From: Patescibacteria group bacterium
GTDB lineage: Bacteria > Patescibacteriota > UBA1384 > GWA2-35-9 > JBASTP01
Direction of reading: 5' to 3'
Assembly (NCBI GenBank): GCA_049274945.1
Contig: JBASTP010000001.1
Location: 1-58,881 of the forward strand
DNA: 58,881 nt
Program-made: the position numbers and the translations under genes
Notes under the pieces: generated by a model
The model's input: the letters and a program-made list of their open reading frames with translations, nothing else
What the model was told of the DNA's origin: nothing
Databases searched by the model: none
Part shown: positions 27,672 to 33,757 of the stretch, one piece after another
How positions within the stretch are numbered: the first letter of the stretch is position 1
Layout of the letters: each line of letters begins with the position of its first letter

Positions 27672-27708
27672 GGCATAATACCAGGAACGGCTTATCCGTT
27701 ACCGATCT

Positions 27709-27740
27709 AAAACAAAAGGGCCGCCAAGGGGCGACCCGGG
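27709..27740 (-). terminator. intrinsic terminator for array 1 (minus strand)
   Basis: The minus strand reads GGGTCGCC cctt GGCGGCCC followed by TTTTGTTTT. The plus strand has no T-run after the stem. Confidence 0.5.
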
Positions 27741-27741
27741 A

Positions 27742-28084
27742 GAACCAAGGAGCAAAAAAACGAGCGTGATTGAAATTTAGTTATGAGACCCAGAATCAAG
27801 GAAAAGTGAGGAGTGGGCACTACACGATTGGTGAAGAACAGAATCAAACCGCGTGGAATCAAGGAAGCAAATGATCTCTTGTCAGCTCTGGCCAGCTCAT
27901 CGCACATGGAATCAAGGAGTCAGGTAAAGGTGCAAAACAGCAATCGGATCCTGATTGCCGAACGTAGAATCAAGGAATAACATCAGTGTATCCCGATGGT
28001 TGCCGACAGAAATCGAGCTGCGTCGAATCAAGGAAGCTAAAAAATACCAAACCAATATGTTGTGTACTGCAAAGAATCAAGGAA
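27742..28084 (-). repeat. short-repeat array 1 (CRISPR-like; 7 copies of TTCCTTGATTC read on the minus strand)
   Basis: Plus-strand GAATCAAGGAA/G starts at 27793, 27856, 27909, 27967, 28025 and 28074. A degenerate promoter-distal copy GAACCAAGGAG is at 27742. Unique spacers are 38-52 nt. Confidence 0.8.
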
Positions 28085-28180
28085 CGCACCCATATACTAC
28101 CAAAATAACCTCCAAACCTCAACCATCTGGTTGACAAATATACTGTTTTATGGTATTCTTTTTGGGCTGTTCGTTGAAAA
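28085..28180. promoter_or_regulatory. divergent promoter region between arrays 1 and 2
   Basis: Plus strand: TTGACA 28131-28136, 17-nt spacer, TATTCT 28154-28159. Minus strand: TTGAGG (rc of 28117-28122), 17-nt spacer, TAGTAT (rc of 28094-28099). Confidence 0.5.
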
Positions 28181-28531
28181 CTCCTTGATTCGACGTGTGG
28201 CCCTACTTTATATTGTCAGTTTGGCCTATCTGGTTCCTTGATTCAACATATAGTACGATATGCTGCGTTCGTCCTGGATTGCTCCTTGATTCTGGATGGG
28301 TTGCTAAAGCTAGAGTCGCGTTCCGCCGTCTCGTTCCTTGATTCGTCGTTGGATCGATCAAGATGCTTTCTGAAGGTGATTGGAGAATTCAGTTTTTCCT
28401 TGATTCGAGGCCTGATAATAACGGTCCGGTAGGTCCCCGATTCGTCGCGTTCGTTTAATCCTTGATTCGATGTCCGGTGATGTGTGCTTCCACGCTTTGA
28501 ATAGGGCTTTTTCATTTCGATTCCTTGATTC
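28181..28531 (+). repeat. short-repeat array 2 (CRISPR-like; 7 copies of YTCCTTGATTC)
   Basis: Copies start at 28181, 28234, 28282, 28334, 28396, 28458 (ATCCTTGATTC) and 28521. Unique spacers are 37-52 nt. Confidence 0.8.
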
Positions 28532-28616
28532 TTCGTATGACACGATAGATCGTCTTAACCAACGGTACTTTGCACTTTTTCGAGCCAACCCAAACTCATG
28601 AAAGGAGTGATGCTAC

Positions 28617-29618
28617 ATGGCAAGAAAGACGACAGAGATGGCAAGAAAGACAGCAAGAGCGGAAAGAGCAGAAAAGGAGGTGGTGGTTAGGCCAGTCGAC
28701 CCCTACATCTATTTCAAGTTTGTAGGGCGTTGGACCGGAATGGTGGGAGGTGTCTCACCATCGATATCGACCACCGAAACCCACCTCGCCAAGATGGTGG
28801 AAGACGAGGAGAAACGACTTCGGAGAGAAGCTGTGAGCAGGCGTCCGTCGCAAGCTCGTGAGGCCGAACCTGTTGCCACCGAAGTGGTCAGCGCCGAGCT
28901 GTCAACGGAAGTTAACGGCAGCGAGTTGGCAGAAGTAGTCGAAGCCGAGATCAAATCCGAACGGCGCAAGTGGCTCGAGGAAGCTCTGAAAGATACGCGG
29001 CTCGATGCCGATGCCAGAACCGTCATCCAGAACGCGCTCAAGGAGCTGAACCCGGCGGAAAAAATCGTCCGCCAGATGCTCAAGATGACGAACACGTTTC
29101 CGAAAAACGGCGGCACAAACTTCTTCATCCCCAAGGCCTGGTTTTACGGCGGCCTCAAGGCGGCGGTCCAGGCCGATGGCCTGTACCCGTACGAGGACGC
29201 CGCCCAACGCCTGGCCAAGCGCTGCGTGGTGATCTACCCCGATCGAATCGATCTGGGAGTGAAAGAGCCGGACAACGTCCACACTGCCAATGTCACCCTC
29301 GGCAGGGTGGGACCCGGCGAAGCGCAATCTTCGATCAAGCGCTTCCACATGGTGCGGCCGCGCCAGGAGCAGTTCATCCTGGTGATTGCGGTGGTGGATG
29401 CGGTGTCCGCGGCTGCGCTCATCGCCAACATGCAACGCGTCTTCACCATCATCGGCAACAACGGCCTTGGGGGCGGGCGCCCGTCCTACGGCCAGTTCGA
29501 GGTCGTGGAATGCCGCCGGTTGCCCAAAAACGATGAGGGTGACCAGGAAGCCAAAGAGCTGATCGCGCAGCTCAGCGCCTCACACGACAACCCGGGCGAC
29601 GATACCGATCTCGAGTAA
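28617..29618 (+). CDS. RAMP-like (Cas7/Cas5/Cas6-type RRM) protein candidate A
   Basis: AAAGGAG ribosome-binding site. Charged N-terminus, FFIPKAWFYGGLKAAV (like the RAMP IPGSSLKGALR motif) and a C-terminal glycine-rich loop NNGLGGGRPSYGQFEV (29463-29498). Paralogous to the next ORF. Confidence 0.5.
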   Translation: MARKTTEMARKTARAERAEKEVVVRPVDPYIYFKFVGRWTGMVGGVSPSISTTETHLAKMVEDEEKRLRREAVSRRPSQAREAEPVATEVVSAELSTEVNGSELAEVVEAEIKSERRKWLEEALKDTRLDADARTVIQNALKELNPAEKIVRQMLKMTNTFPKNGGTNFFIPKAWFYGGLKAAVQADGLYPYEDAAQRLAKRCVVIYPDRIDLGVKEPDNVHTANVTLGRVGPGEAQSSIKRFHMVRPRQEQFILVIAVVDAVSAAALIANMQRVFTIIGNNGLGGGRPSYGQFEVVECRRLPKNDEGDQEAKELIAQLSASHDNPGDDTDLE

Positions 29619-29627
29619 CCGACCAAA

Positions 29628-31845: not shown

Positions 31846-33015
31846 ATGCCAGCTTCGAGACTCGTGATTGCGATTGGCCGTAATACCCATACGCTGGTAT
31901 ATTCCATTGGCGATAACGAAATCATCGAACAAGCAGTACCAAACAGCTCAGAAGCGATTGCGGCAATTCAATCAGTGAATGCCGATCAAATCATTGTTGT
32001 TGGTAATTACCAATGGGCCCTGCCGCTTGGGTTTGCCCTGGATAGCGCTGGCATACCCTGCCGATTTGTGCCGAAACCCACTGCCAAAGGCAAGCGGCAA
32101 AGTATGATTAAGTTCGCCCAAGTAATCTTGGGCACTCAAGAATATGGCCGTCCTTTCCCTGGCGAAGAAATCCCGCGGCCAAAGCAGTCAATCGAGCAGC
32201 AAGAGCAAGATCAGCACCCGGTATACAAAATGGGACTGCTGTATCTTGAGGCAACTGATGGAGTACGGCGGTTGAAGCACAAAGTGATGAGTATGGTCGC
32301 CGTCCTCTTTCCTGAAGCTGTCCGGCCATCCATGGCCGAGCTCAAGAAAGATATGGAAGGTCACTATCTCAAACCGGTGCCGCACCCAATACCACCGGAC
32401 CTCTGGACAAAAAAAATGAGATTTGTGCTCCAGAACCCGGACCCGTCTATGCTTAGAAACACCACCGAAAAGATACCCGATGAGGTTCGTACGCTTGCGC
32501 AGGATTCCTTGGGATATTCAATTCCCCTCCAACTGCGCGCCCATTATCAAGGCCTGCTTGATCAATACCTCACGCAACTGGCACTGGCAGAAACGCACAA
32601 AAAATCAACCATGGCTGCGCTGAAAGAATCAATACAGAAACTGCCCGTGGCCATGCGCCTTGTGGCATTATTCCCGGATTCTGAAACTGCCTGCGTGCTT
32701 GCCGCAGGCTTGGGGTGGCGCAACTGGGATAACTGGAGGGAACTGCAATTATTCTGCGGTTTAGCCCCAACTCGGATTGACGACAAGGGCAGGCGCCATA
32801 TTTCACGAGTGCGCGGCCACATTCGCCAATACCTCTACCTTATGGCATTTCTGACCACCAAGGGAAAAATCTGGTCACGGGTGCCAAAAACCCAAGTGAT
32901 TGACGGGCAAGAGGTAAAAGTTAAACATCTCCGAGTACGGCGCATCAAGGCGCTGCTGCGCGCACTCAAAACATATGCGTTGCAATCAGAGCCAGTTCCA
33001 GATCCGGAACTGTAA
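31846..33015 (+). CDS. IS110-family transposase-like protein, apparently lacking the catalytic residues
   Basis: AAAGGAG ribosome-binding site. It has family-like blocks: LVIAIGRNTH (vs GIDVSK), IIVVGNYQW (vs vvEaTG.Y), LFPEAV (vs FPEL) and FCGLAPTRIDDKGRRHISRVRGHIRQYLYLMAF (vs GLaP...SGk....is..G...lR..L..aA). The conserved D, E, D, D and S positions are not acidic/Ser in my manual alignment. Confidence 0.6.
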   Translation: MPASRLVIAIGRNTHTLVYSIGDNEIIEQAVPNSSEAIAAIQSVNADQIIVVGNYQWALPLGFALDSAGIPCRFVPKPTAKGKRQSMIKFAQVILGTQEYGRPFPGEEIPRPKQSIEQQEQDQHPVYKMGLLYLEATDGVRRLKHKVMSMVAVLFPEAVRPSMAELKKDMEGHYLKPVPHPIPPDLWTKKMRFVLQNPDPSMLRNTTEKIPDEVRTLAQDSLGYSIPLQLRAHYQGLLDQYLTQLALAETHKKSTMAALKESIQKLPVAMRLVALFPDSETACVLAAGLGWRNWDNWRELQLFCGLAPTRIDDKGRRHISRVRGHIRQYLYLMAFLTTKGKIWSRVPKTQVIDGQEVKVKHLRVRRIKALLRALKTYALQSEPVPDPEL

Positions 33016-33038
33016 CTTCAACAAAGAATCAGTTGCAA

Positions 33039-33068
33039 CTGCCGCCCCAAGCGCGGCAGTTTTTGTTT
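33039..33068 (+). terminator. intrinsic terminator after the IS110-like gene
   Basis: CTGCCGC ... GCGGCAG followed by TTTTTGTTT. Confidence 0.65.
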
Positions 33069-33106
33069 GGTATGAAAAGTAAAAGTATATTTGCTATAAT
33101 AATAAG

Positions 33107-33396
33107 GTCTTGCTCAATGTATACTAAGTCCGCAGGGACTCGCAAGATACTTAGCAAGACACGACCGGCCGCTCGTTGGTCGCTTAGTCGGCTTGCCGAC
33201 TCGAAAAAAACTCAAGCGGCCGGTCAGCCCTTTTTCCAATTTTTCCAGGTTTGGTGGCGCGCTCGTTGTAGAAATTAGAACCCTCGGGTTCTCGTTACCA
33301 GTTTAGCGCGCCACCTCCAATTTTCCCCTGAGTTGCTCGTGGTTCTTTTAGCCCATATGGGCTCGAAAGGACAATAGCAACTCTAGGGGATTTTTT
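33107..33396 (+). ncRNA. structured ncRNA 2 (about 290 nt), paralog of ncRNA 1
   Basis: Extended -10 TGcTATAAT (33092-33100). It shares the 5' stem (33107/33153), the GACCGGCCGCT/AGCGGCCGGTC stem (33163/33215) and an identical 23-nt linker TTTTCCAATTTTTCCAGGTTTGG (33232-33254). The terminal stem is CCCCTGAGTTGCT/AGCAACTCTAGGGG followed by a T-run. Confidence 0.65.
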
Positions 33397-33453
33397 ACTT
33401 AACCCCTTGACACAACATCTCCCGCCACCGACAATCAAAATATGGCAGAAAAA
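33391..33453 (+). repeat. about 60-nt direct repeat, right copy (functional promoter and start of the 79-aa gene)
   Basis: See 31152-31213. Confidence 0.8.
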
Positions 33454-33681
33454 GAATTCACCGCAACCCAAGTGATGGCGCTCCAAGAAGAATTAGGCAA
33501 GGGCATTAAGGTTATTGGCGAACAATATTCGGATATTAAACAAGAACTCAAAACCATCAACGGGCGCCTCGAAAATCTTGAGGAAAAAGTTGATATTATG
33601 GTTGCAACAATACCCCATAAAGCCAGCAAAGCCCAGGTAGATGAACTCGAAAAAAGAGTCGAGGCACTAGAAACCTCTTGA
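33442..33681 (+). CDS. small coiled-coil protein (79 aa), hypothetical
   Basis: Heptad-rich sequence (RLENLEEKV...VDELEKRVEALE) immediately upstream of tuf. Confidence 0.6.
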   Translation: MAEKEFTATQVMALQEELGKGIKVIGEQYSDIKQELKTINGRLENLEEKVDIMVATIPHKASKAQVDELEKRVEALETS

Positions 33682-33757
33682 CAAACCTGTTTCCCACCTG
33701 TAACATTTAATTCATTACTAAGGGCGAAGCCCACTATTTTAGTTACGGAGTAACCAA

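Follow-up and report, generated by a model that had tools for sequence, protein, structure and literature searches.

The window analysed here, a stretch of 58,881 nucleotides (nt) from a Patescibacteria group bacterium (GenBank assembly GCA_049274945.1, contig JBASTP010000001.1), raises the question of what separates fusA from tuf within its str operon. A preliminary description of this DNA had proposed a 6.1-kb modular accessory island at this site, made up of three short-repeat arrays, a two-gene operon, two non-coding RNAs (ncRNAs), an IS110-like gene and a small coiled-coil gene, and all of these elements were found where it had placed them. Our analysis indicates that the fusA-tuf spacer probably houses two unrelated, self-contained RNA-guided modules, a VIPR-like (Viral Interference Programmable Repeat) module at 27.7-31.15 kb and a TIGR-Tas module at 31.2-33.4 kb, together with a small open reading frame (ORF), in a Berkelbacteria-like genome of the candidate phyla radiation (CPR). 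The first of these appears to be a previously undescribed variant of the VIPR kind, whereas the TIGR-Tas module is of an already known kind. The RNA-based module of arrays and two genes suggested earlier is present and can now be specified as a RAMP-based, VIPR-like system. All features are listed in Table 1.

The RAMP module is built around two genes, A and B, for which Pfam, NCBIfam and PADLOC returned nothing usable (hints to Csm4 at E 0.06 and to HAAS at E 0.043). Their fold was assigned with AlphaFold2 (AF2) models, with predicted local distance difference test (pLDDT) scores of 69 for A and 62 for B, and Foldseek. The top 50 matches of model A in the PDB were all CRISPR RAMPs (best E 1.5e-3). 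For model B, the listed PDB matches were entries for CRISPR effector complexes (types I, III, IV and VII; probabilities of up to 1.0), among them Csm, Cmr, type VII, type I-B Cascade and Cas7-11. Among viral structures (BFVD), the best matches of model A were small phage-encoded RAMPs (E 5.9e-6). Remote sequence relatives reach the Pfam RAMPs and the Cas6 G-loop below threshold, and G-rich loops are seen in the family alignments of both proteins. Furthermore, hhalign aligned A with B at a probability of 82% (E 1e-5), and from their sequences the two are classed as distant paralogues, each with a long helical insertion. Profile searches of A, B and the protein of the TIGR-Tas module (gene C) against PDB sequences gave chance matches only.

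Among 5.8 billion clusters, 9 homologues of A and 4 of B were found, and a profile of gene A recovered 18 cluster representatives among 1.84 billion proteins. In the loci that show both genes, A lies next to B and arrays of this type flank the pair; the loci L016 and L019 also carry arrays. Across the five loci whose neighbourhood was read, no genes other than A and B are conserved. No cas1, cas2, cas6, cas10, large-subunit or other cas gene was present among the window ORFs scanned, and no cas Pfam family among the called neighbours in the other loci. TRF detected no CRISPR-like array in the window, only short low-copy repeats.

The arrays share a 9-mer core, CCTTGATTC, of which the 58.9-kb window holds 22 exact copies, all within 27793-31113. 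With up to one mismatch there are 36 matches, compared with 15.8 +/- 3.7 expected, a count reached by 0/100 shuffles. Each array unit consists of a conserved element of about 13 nt (U-YYUYGRUUC-nnnG), followed by 6-12 pentamers of the form Y-N-N-K-H. When 117 units from five loci were pooled, the repeat spacings equalled 3 modulo 5 (43, 48, 53, 58, 63...) in 69/102 cases (p = 3e-25). The first pentamer position, that is, every fifth base counted from the core, is a pyrimidine in 85-94% and a G in 1-3% of cases. This applies separately to each of six loci, between which protein identity is only 40-83%; for the window alone, the pyrimidine register gives a Fisher p of 1e-20. Position 4 is rich in G or T (about 38% G) and position 5 is poor in G in most loci, with 12% G in the window and in the loci L001 and L002. 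Purine autocorrelation without anchoring to the core also revealed the period. The values at lags 5 and 10 were reached by 1/2000 shuffles for arrays 2 and 3 and by 13/2000 for array 1, and neither coding sequence nor the TIGR array shows this signal. In units of irregular length, the register is mostly in phase with the upstream core and not with the downstream one. The RNA of array 3 is predicted to be unstructured (z = +0.16).

To see how the tracts vary, we turn to five orthologous units shared by the window and L001, which are 75-92% identical. Here, pentamer positions 2-3 were changed in 7/84 cases and positions 4-5 in 26/80, while six of the ten changes at position 1 replaced one pyrimidine with the other. 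The N-N positions are thus selectively conserved, which indicates that the tracts hold unit-specific information. The units common to both genomes differ in order and in the array that they occupy. A more distant member of the RAMP family, in L019 (340-950 and 1919-1991), is accompanied by another conserved element, ATCATGGATGCAAGG, at intervals that mostly measure 43-58 nt. The different element in this distant locus indicates that the core co-varies with the proteins.

Array elements also occur in front of the genes themselves. Upstream of gene A, the mRNA leader forms a complete array unit whose register continues into the Shine-Dalgarno sequence: of its 17 register positions, 14 are pyrimidines, and the Shine-Dalgarno sequence accounts for two of the three exceptions. 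The corresponding leaders in L001, L002 and L005 show the pattern too, with pyrimidine fractions of 0.71-0.82. A lone core next to the Shine-Dalgarno sequence of gene B stands 23-25 nt before the start codon in these three loci as well. This arrangement suggests that the RAMP complex binds or cuts its own mRNA.

The tracts were compared with possible targets in several ways. A blastn-short search against the window and the fetched loci returned only orthologous or paralogous units, and register-masked complementarity against the window was no better than a reversed-sequence control. Queries made from the N-N positions with skips of 0, 1 or 2 nt matched the 1.38 Mb of fetched loci at chance level. 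In IMG/VR, two register-masked patterns and four exact 20-base patterns with a 1-nt skip had 0 matches, and no viral relatives of the RAMP system were found there. A single repeat-pattern match in the virus search (L101) proved to be a tandem duplication inside a phage ORF and was rejected.

We propose that the array transcripts would be cut into units and that the conserved element would fix the 5-nt register in which RAMP subunits coat each tract. The pyrimidine may be held in a protein pocket, with the next two bases conferring target specificity. By analogy with VIPR, the complex would then bind double-stranded DNA through a gapped code and repress it. No nuclease is encoded. The leader unit of gene A and the lone core before gene B could serve autoregulation or set the A:B ratio.

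The second module was first taken for something else. Its protein, gene C, had been described as IS110-like, yet it is better identified by its homology as a TasR of the CPR clade, associated with TIGR, and not as a transposase. More specifically, the match to the NCBIfam IS110 model reached 21 bits against a cutoff of 140 (E 1.5e-4) and covered only the C-terminal part (residues 202-338). IS110 and Tas have a Nop-like RNA-binding domain in common, which accounts for this weak match. All ten relatives of gene C have G-R-N-T-H and G-N where the IS110 RuvC carries acidic residues, and the family alignment places GRNTH at the first RuvC motif; gene C itself has a D at the Ser of the DSKG motif found in its relatives. 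With these substitutions, the RuvC is predicted to be catalytically inactive, in parallel with R8 in CsTasR. One relative, P0018 (40% identity, E 3e-61), is identical to UniProt A0A0G1Q325, a row of Data S1, the seed alignment of the custom TIGR/Tas HMM of Faure et al. 2025 (PMC12045711). Gene C aligned with this seed row in BLASTP at an E of 2e-28, and hhalign against the dual-repeat TaTasR was not significant, as expected of a distant clade.

The two ncRNAs flanking gene C are also present as described, at 31257-31720 and 33107-33390; their identity was corrected to TIGR stem-loop guide arrays. All ten units share one anatomy: an outer stem, CG+N10, an inner 5-bp hairpin, CG+N10 and the outer stem again, with CUUUU linkers at the stem bases, so that each unit holds two spacers of about 10 nt. 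The upstream array folds with z = -9.86 against shuffles, and the first two downstream units are paralogous to the first two upstream units (repeat families D10-D12 and D17). One unit, with the stem CGACCGGCCGC/GCGGCCGGTC, is present twice in the window and twice in the 97%-identical genome L009, each copy with an unrelated spacer pair, while the units next to it are unchanged between the two genomes. Four different spacer pairs amount to the spacer hypervariability expected of guides. In L011, a 40%-identical Tas homologue at an unrelated site likewise has arrays on both sides. A search of the window for TIGR targets (spacer A, a gap of 0-4 and the reverse complement of spacer B, with up to 4 mismatches) yielded chance matches only.

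Published members of the CPR clade of dead TasR proteins have arrays on both sides, with a hairpin in the loop and CUU as the processing motif; their first RuvC position is an Arg, and they repress transcription under RNA guidance (PMC12045711; bioRxiv 10.64898/2026.09.09.750476). On sequence grounds, we assign gene C and its flanking ncRNAs to a TIGR-Tas system of the CPR stem-loop type. Judging from the work on these relatives, the module would act as an RNA-guided DNA binder and transcriptional repressor.

Comparison with related genomes revealed differences in module content at this site. In L009 (GCA_964342885.1, 97% nt identity), the end of fusA is followed by 64 bp of sequence of its own and then by the TIGR promoter; this genome has TIGR-Tas and is without window positions 27690-~31223, the RAMP module. 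Conversely, in L001 (Candidatus Berkelbacteria GCA_016196985.1), with an identity of 81% in A and B and 92% in tuf, array 1, array 2, genes A and B and array 3 are followed immediately by the tuf promoter; tasR, both TIGR arrays and the small ORF are missing. The sequence to the left of array 1 is common to all three genomes, and we infer as the most economical history an old RAMP module that was lost in L009, and a TIGR-Tas module with the small ORF that is lacking in L001. The modules are gained and lost independently, which bears out the earlier view of a modular accessory island: the fusA-tuf junction has strain-variable module content. It had also been suggested that a place in this operon might protect the module from loss; the loss of the RAMP module in L009 argues against this idea.

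Two copies of a 63-nt direct repeat bracket the entire TIGR-Tas module, and L009 has copy 2 only. Recombination between the copies would precisely delete TIGR-Tas. A 44-amino-acid (aa) ORF begins in copy 1 and extends into the TIGR promoter; the 79-aa ORF begins in copy 2.

The placement of such a module in the str operon had been considered unusual, a view that is weakened by a survey of fusA-tuf gaps in 80 fetched genomes with fusA. The gap measures 28-230 nt in non-CPR bacteria. Patescibacterial gaps are commonly 400-1000 nt long and include a small ORF and a dedicated tuf promoter, and in four of these bacteria the gap reaches 1.7-5.9 kb; two such gaps that were examined hold unrelated accessory genes. 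The fusA-tuf gap is a recurrent variable spot in Patescibacteria.

Several further observations concern this and similar sites. L022, L025, L028, L030, L046 and L052 are among many Patescibacteria with one ORF of about 80-140 aa and its own promoter in the gap. Several of these ORFs have an N-terminal motif such as K-I-I/L-x-K-x-G-G-K-x-I-I-I, and the protein differs from that of the 79-aa window ORF. The insert in L079 (11227-11866) holds two small adjacent ORFs, whose motifs, assessed by eye, suggest a nucleotidyltransferase/HEPN-type toxin-antitoxin pair, and several ORFs with hydrophobic N-termini. The insert in L026 (2229-7085) encodes ORFs of 1251 and 342 aa, to which no function was assigned. 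In L001, the place of fusA upstream of array 1 is taken by a ParE-toxin-like ORF (19-348; Pfam E 1.6e-3, under the cutoff) that extends into the array and is perhaps a remnant. Further along the window, about 3 kb (35283-38290) separate rpsJ from rplC, compared with 346 nt in L001. The part at 37205-38192 is common to L009 and contains a 92-aa coiled-coil ORF and an ORF with an NYN domain (Pfam E 4e-12), while 35283-37204 is found in the window only, has 36% GC and holds three ORFs without family matches. Strain-variable DNA thus interrupts a second ribosomal-operon junction as well.

Table 1. Features of the fusA-tuf spacer and its flanks (window coordinates, unless a genome is named).
Feature	Position	Strand	Basis and remarks
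fusA (EF-G), left flank	25563..27671	+	Pfam GTP_EFTU, EFG_III, EFG_IV, EFG_C
Array 1 terminator, 8-bp stem with 7 G-C pairs, then T run	27708..27737	-	scan; conserved in L001 at 219-254
Array 1, 6 exact cores (27793-28082) and 1 degenerate core (U)YYUYGRUUC-nnnG, each followed by a pentamer tract	27742..28082	-	core positions, unit table, pyrimidine register
Array 1 candidate promoter, TTGAGG-17 nt-TAGTAT, 8/12	28095..28123	-	by eye, below scan threshold; inferred
Promoter of array 2 and gene A/B transcription unit, TTGACA-17 nt-TATTCT, TG extension, 10/12	28131..28159	+	scan
Array 2, 7 cores (28183-28531)	28183..28616	+	last unit (28523-28616) is the gene A 5' leader
Gene A, 333-aa RAMP-fold protein, G-rich loop GLGGGRPSYGQF	28617..29618	+	AF2 and Foldseek
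Lone core	29630..29638	+	24 nt upstream of gene B start codon, abuts Shine-Dalgarno
Gene B, 290-aa RAMP-fold protein, G-rich loop GLGGYRQMRQGQF	29654..30526	+	AF2 and Foldseek
Terminator after gene B, 12-bp stem, then T run	30543..30572	+	scan
Array 3 promoter, TTGACT-18 nt-TATACT, 10/12	30612..30641	+	scan
Array 3, 9 cores	30653..31113	+	core positions, unit table
Array 3 terminator	31126..31144	+	scan; conserved in L001 at 3563-3589
63-nt direct repeat copy 1, promoter-like TTGAC box and ATGGCAGA	31152..31214	+	90% identical to copy 2; absent from L009
Upstream TIGR array promoter, TCGACA-17 nt-TATAAT, 11/12	31222..31250	+	scan
Upstream TIGR stem-loop array, 6 units	31257..31720	+	RNAfold
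Upstream TIGR units	31257-31310, 31313-31375, 31428-31492, 31509-31574, 31584-31648, 31655-31720	+	RNAfold; small hairpin near 31402-31419
tasR (gene C), Nop-domain protein, N-terminal RuvC-like region with substituted motifs	31846..33015	+	homology to Tas seed sequence
Terminator after tasR	33037..33061	+	scan
Downstream TIGR array promoter, 10/12, TG extension	33072..33100	+	scan
Downstream TIGR stem-loop array, 4 units	33107..33390	+	RNAfold
Downstream TIGR units	33107-33160, 33163-33225, 33253-33315, 33324-33390	+	RNAfold
Copies of the CGACCGGCCGC/GCGGCCGGTC unit	window 31313-31375, 33163-33225; L009 428-490, 2265-2328		
63-nt direct repeat copy 2, carries small-ORF promoter and start	33391..33453	+	repeat listing and promoter scan
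79-aa coiled-coil ORF, role not assigned	33442..33681	+	weak coiled-coil Pfam matches only; in L009, absent from L001
tuf own promoter	33678..33706	+	scan; conserved in L001 and L009
tuf (EF-Tu), right flank	33758..34939	+	Pfam

Both flanking genes, fusA and tuf, have complete Pfam domain sets, and the window is otherwise ordinary chromosome, with gyrB, gyrA, infB, cdaA, obg, the str and S10 genes, secY, map, rpsD and rpoA; two long ORFs are taken to be rpoB and rpoC from their size and position. Perfect tandem repeats (TRF, 100% match) lie within the ribosomal-protein cluster at 39748-39793 (16 nt x 2.9) and 41226-41288 (21 nt x 2.5). A search of 27000-34500 against Rfam at E <= 1 gave no match.

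The transcription signals support the idea that the units carry their own promoters and terminators. The scan found 11 promoter-like sites, compared with 5.0 +/- 2.8 expected, and six of them lie exactly before array 2, array 3, each of the two ncRNAs, the small ORF and tuf. For terminator-like sites there is no overall enrichment, with 9 found and 8.7 expected; the strongest four stand at the ends of array 1 (minus strand), gene B, array 3 and the IS110-like gene. For the candidate promoter of array 1, both hexamers are kept in L001 and the spacer between them differs. The terminator scan detected no plus-strand terminator after fusA, in agreement with what had been reported. The G+C counts given for two 60-nt lines, 21/60 and 37/60, were exact on recount. 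The patchy composition inferred from them holds for the arrays (44-47% G+C) in comparison with the island coding sequence (58-59%; fusA and tuf, 56%), whereas the island as a whole matches the window (51.4% and 51.2%), so that composition gives no sign of foreign origin.

Different explanations can be offered for each module. For the RAMP module, a type III-like mini-CRISPR with contiguous guides was our first reading, which was dropped on account of the 5-nt register and the VIPR preprint. A related explanation, which we consider unlikely, is that of a reduced class 1 CRISPR-Cas relic of type III/IV ancestry, in which the repeat would be a minimal 5' handle, contiguous spacers would pair with RNA and one RAMP would cleave in the manner of Csm3 or Cmr4. 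The best structural matches in the PDB are indeed the backbone subunits Csm3, Cmr4 and Cas7, the layout of repeats and spacers comes with leader promoters and a terminal repeat, and two RAMP paralogues recall Cas5 and Cas7. However, the register is 5 nt rather than 6, the repeat is only 11-13 nt long and without a hairpin, and the "spacers" follow a sequence rule, unlike captured foreign DNA. The cas genes listed above (cas1, cas2, cas6, cas10 and the large subunit) are missing from the scanned window ORFs, as are cas Pfam families from the called neighbours elsewhere, and both contiguous and register-masked complementarity searches were empty. It is also rather improbable that the arrays are not guides at all and instead act as RNA scaffolds or as decoys resembling type III antitoxins (ToxIN) that sequester or regulate the RAMPs, or form a structural ribonucleoprotein filament. 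Such a role would fit the periodic, protein-binding-like rule of the tracts, the array elements in the mRNA leaders of A and B, which suggest that the proteins bind their own transcripts, and the lack of a target in our searches. Yet the tracts vary between units, with N-N selectively conserved in orthologous units (7/84 against 26/80 changed), whereas the repeats of type III antitoxins are all alike and have no variable parts, and VIPR, the closest described system, uses such tracts as guides.

For the TIGR-Tas module, the possibility that gene C and the ncRNAs form an IS110-family insertion sequence with a bridge RNA, which would make the island partly a transposon insertion, deserves hardly any credence. 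It draws on the weak NCBIfam match, on a structured ncRNA beside the gene and on the 63-nt direct repeat that brackets the module. Against it stand the bit score far below the cutoff, the replacement of the acidic RuvC motifs by GRNTH and GN together with the D at the DSKG Ser, the 6 + 4 pseudo-symmetric hairpin units on both sides of the gene instead of one two-loop bridge RNA, and a close homologue that is a seed sequence of the Tas family. An assembly chimera of different strains or organisms is very improbable. The assembly is of metagenome type, close strains differ in module content, and the joins between fusA and array 1 and between array 3 and TIGR were seen here only. On the other hand, L009 confirms fusA up to 27689 and the run from TIGR to tuf, and L001 confirms the sequence from 27703 onward and the stretch leading from array 3 into the tuf promoter. 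Both flanks and the interior of each module are thereby backed by independent assemblies. G+C and gene identity levels are coherent across the island, and the 63-nt repeats are 90% identical and not identical, which makes a false join unlikely.

Two RNA-guided modules at one junction would bear on several questions. A divergent relative of VIPR lies beside a typical TIGR-Tas system, and the two most recently described non-CRISPR families of RNA-guided DNA binders would thus meet in the chromosome of an ultra-small CPR bacterium, inside its str operon. The RAMP module widens the pentamer rules in that only the pyrimidine is fixed, and its family is rare and would be missed by CRISPR finders and YNNGG-based searches alike. 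Its two RAMP paralogues and its layout of repeats and tracts bear on the origin of multi-RAMP CRISPR backbones and of repeat-spacer arrays. The strain comparison presents ribosomal-operon junctions in CPR as exchange points for such modules, and both modules would encode compact, nuclease-free programmable binders that are possible tools.

The closest known kind to the RAMP module is VIPR, to which we liken it by its published description. In the VIPR preprint, dated June 2026, an ancestral RAMP and one accessory gene are accompanied by vrRNAs of 9-16 YNNGG pentamers, whose NN dinucleotides read double-stranded DNA skipping one base, with repression as the outcome. Seven types are distinguished, with NNNGG, YNNNG and NNNNG as alternative pentamers; types II, VI and VII are repressor types without a nuclease, and about 25% of the published loci are chromosomal (bioRxiv 10.64898/2026.04.26.720920). 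The RAMP module shares with VIPR a RAMP-fold effector in a minimal two-gene locus without cas genes, arrays both before and after the genes from which guide RNAs would be transcribed, and tracts of pentanucleotides in which a pyrimidine is followed by two putatively informative bases. As in types II, VI and VII, no nuclease is encoded. The module differs from VIPR in its units of 6-12 rather than 9-16 pentamers, in the long helical insertion of each protein and in its cellular host, as it is chromosomal in CPR whereas VIPR is mostly viral or proviral; the host of L002 appears from the neighbouring genes to be a non-CPR bacterium. Since about a quarter of published VIPR loci are chromosomal, this setting does not exclude VIPR membership.

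Other points weigh against our reading. The window pentamer Y-N-N-K-H lacks GG and fits none of NNNGG, YNNNG and NNNNG, and the second gene is a RAMP paralogue instead of a DNA-binding, nuclease or helicase vap. In place of the structured 3' tail of type II, there is a 13-nt unstructured element in phase with the downstream tract. A and B had no sequence similarity to any GenBank phage by tblastn. No target was found for either guide set in the window, nor for the RAMP tracts in the 1.38 Mb of fetched loci or IMG/VR. Furthermore, the confidence of the AF2 models is middling (69 and 62), the Foldseek E-values against the PDB are only 1e-2 to 1e-3, and the junctions at 27690-27702 and 31150-31223 were seen in this assembly only.

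In comparison with the class 1 CRISPR-Cas proteins Csm3, Cmr4, Cas7 and Cas5, the RAMP module shares the RAMP fold with a G-rich loop, the repeat-spacer layout, the leader promoters and the two RAMP paralogues. It differs in its register (5 nt against 6), in its repeat (11-13 nt against 23-55 nt), in "spacers" that are sequence-constrained and in having no adaptation genes, large subunit or Cas6. It is possible, if doubtful, that the module represents an unclassified cellular lineage related to VIPR and standing between VIPR and class 1 CRISPR, with a two-RAMP effector like Cas5 and Cas7, a handle-like element that sets the register, only the pyrimidine fixed and feedback through guide-like mRNA leaders. 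In that case, it would document a step in the proposed transition from VIPR to CRISPR and show that a gapped code can do without the GG anchor.

The TIGR-Tas module, in turn, resembles IS110 with its bridge RNA in the Nop-like RNA-binding domain and in the structured guide RNA beside the gene, and differs from it in the absence of the catalytic motifs, in an array of many units instead of one bridge RNA and in the lack of element ends and extra copies. Its likeness to TIGR-Tas systems (Faure et al. 2025, PMC12045711; Xu et al. 2026, bioRxiv 10.64898/2026.09.09.750476) extends to a Nop-domain Tas protein homologous to a seed sequence. With the CPR systems, it also shares an Arg at the first catalytic position of the N-terminal RuvC-like region, two-sided arrays with an outer stem, two spacers of about 10 nt, an inner 5-bp hairpin and CUU(U) at the stem bases, and a CPR host. 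At 389 aa, the window TasR lies between PateTasR (329 aa) and CsTasR (547 aa). The window copy differs in its box motifs (CU|CG...AG against CUU/UG of PateTasR) and in its place within the str operon, beside a second RNA-guided module. None of these differences from known TIGR-Tas systems is essential, and the module is a textbook member of its family.

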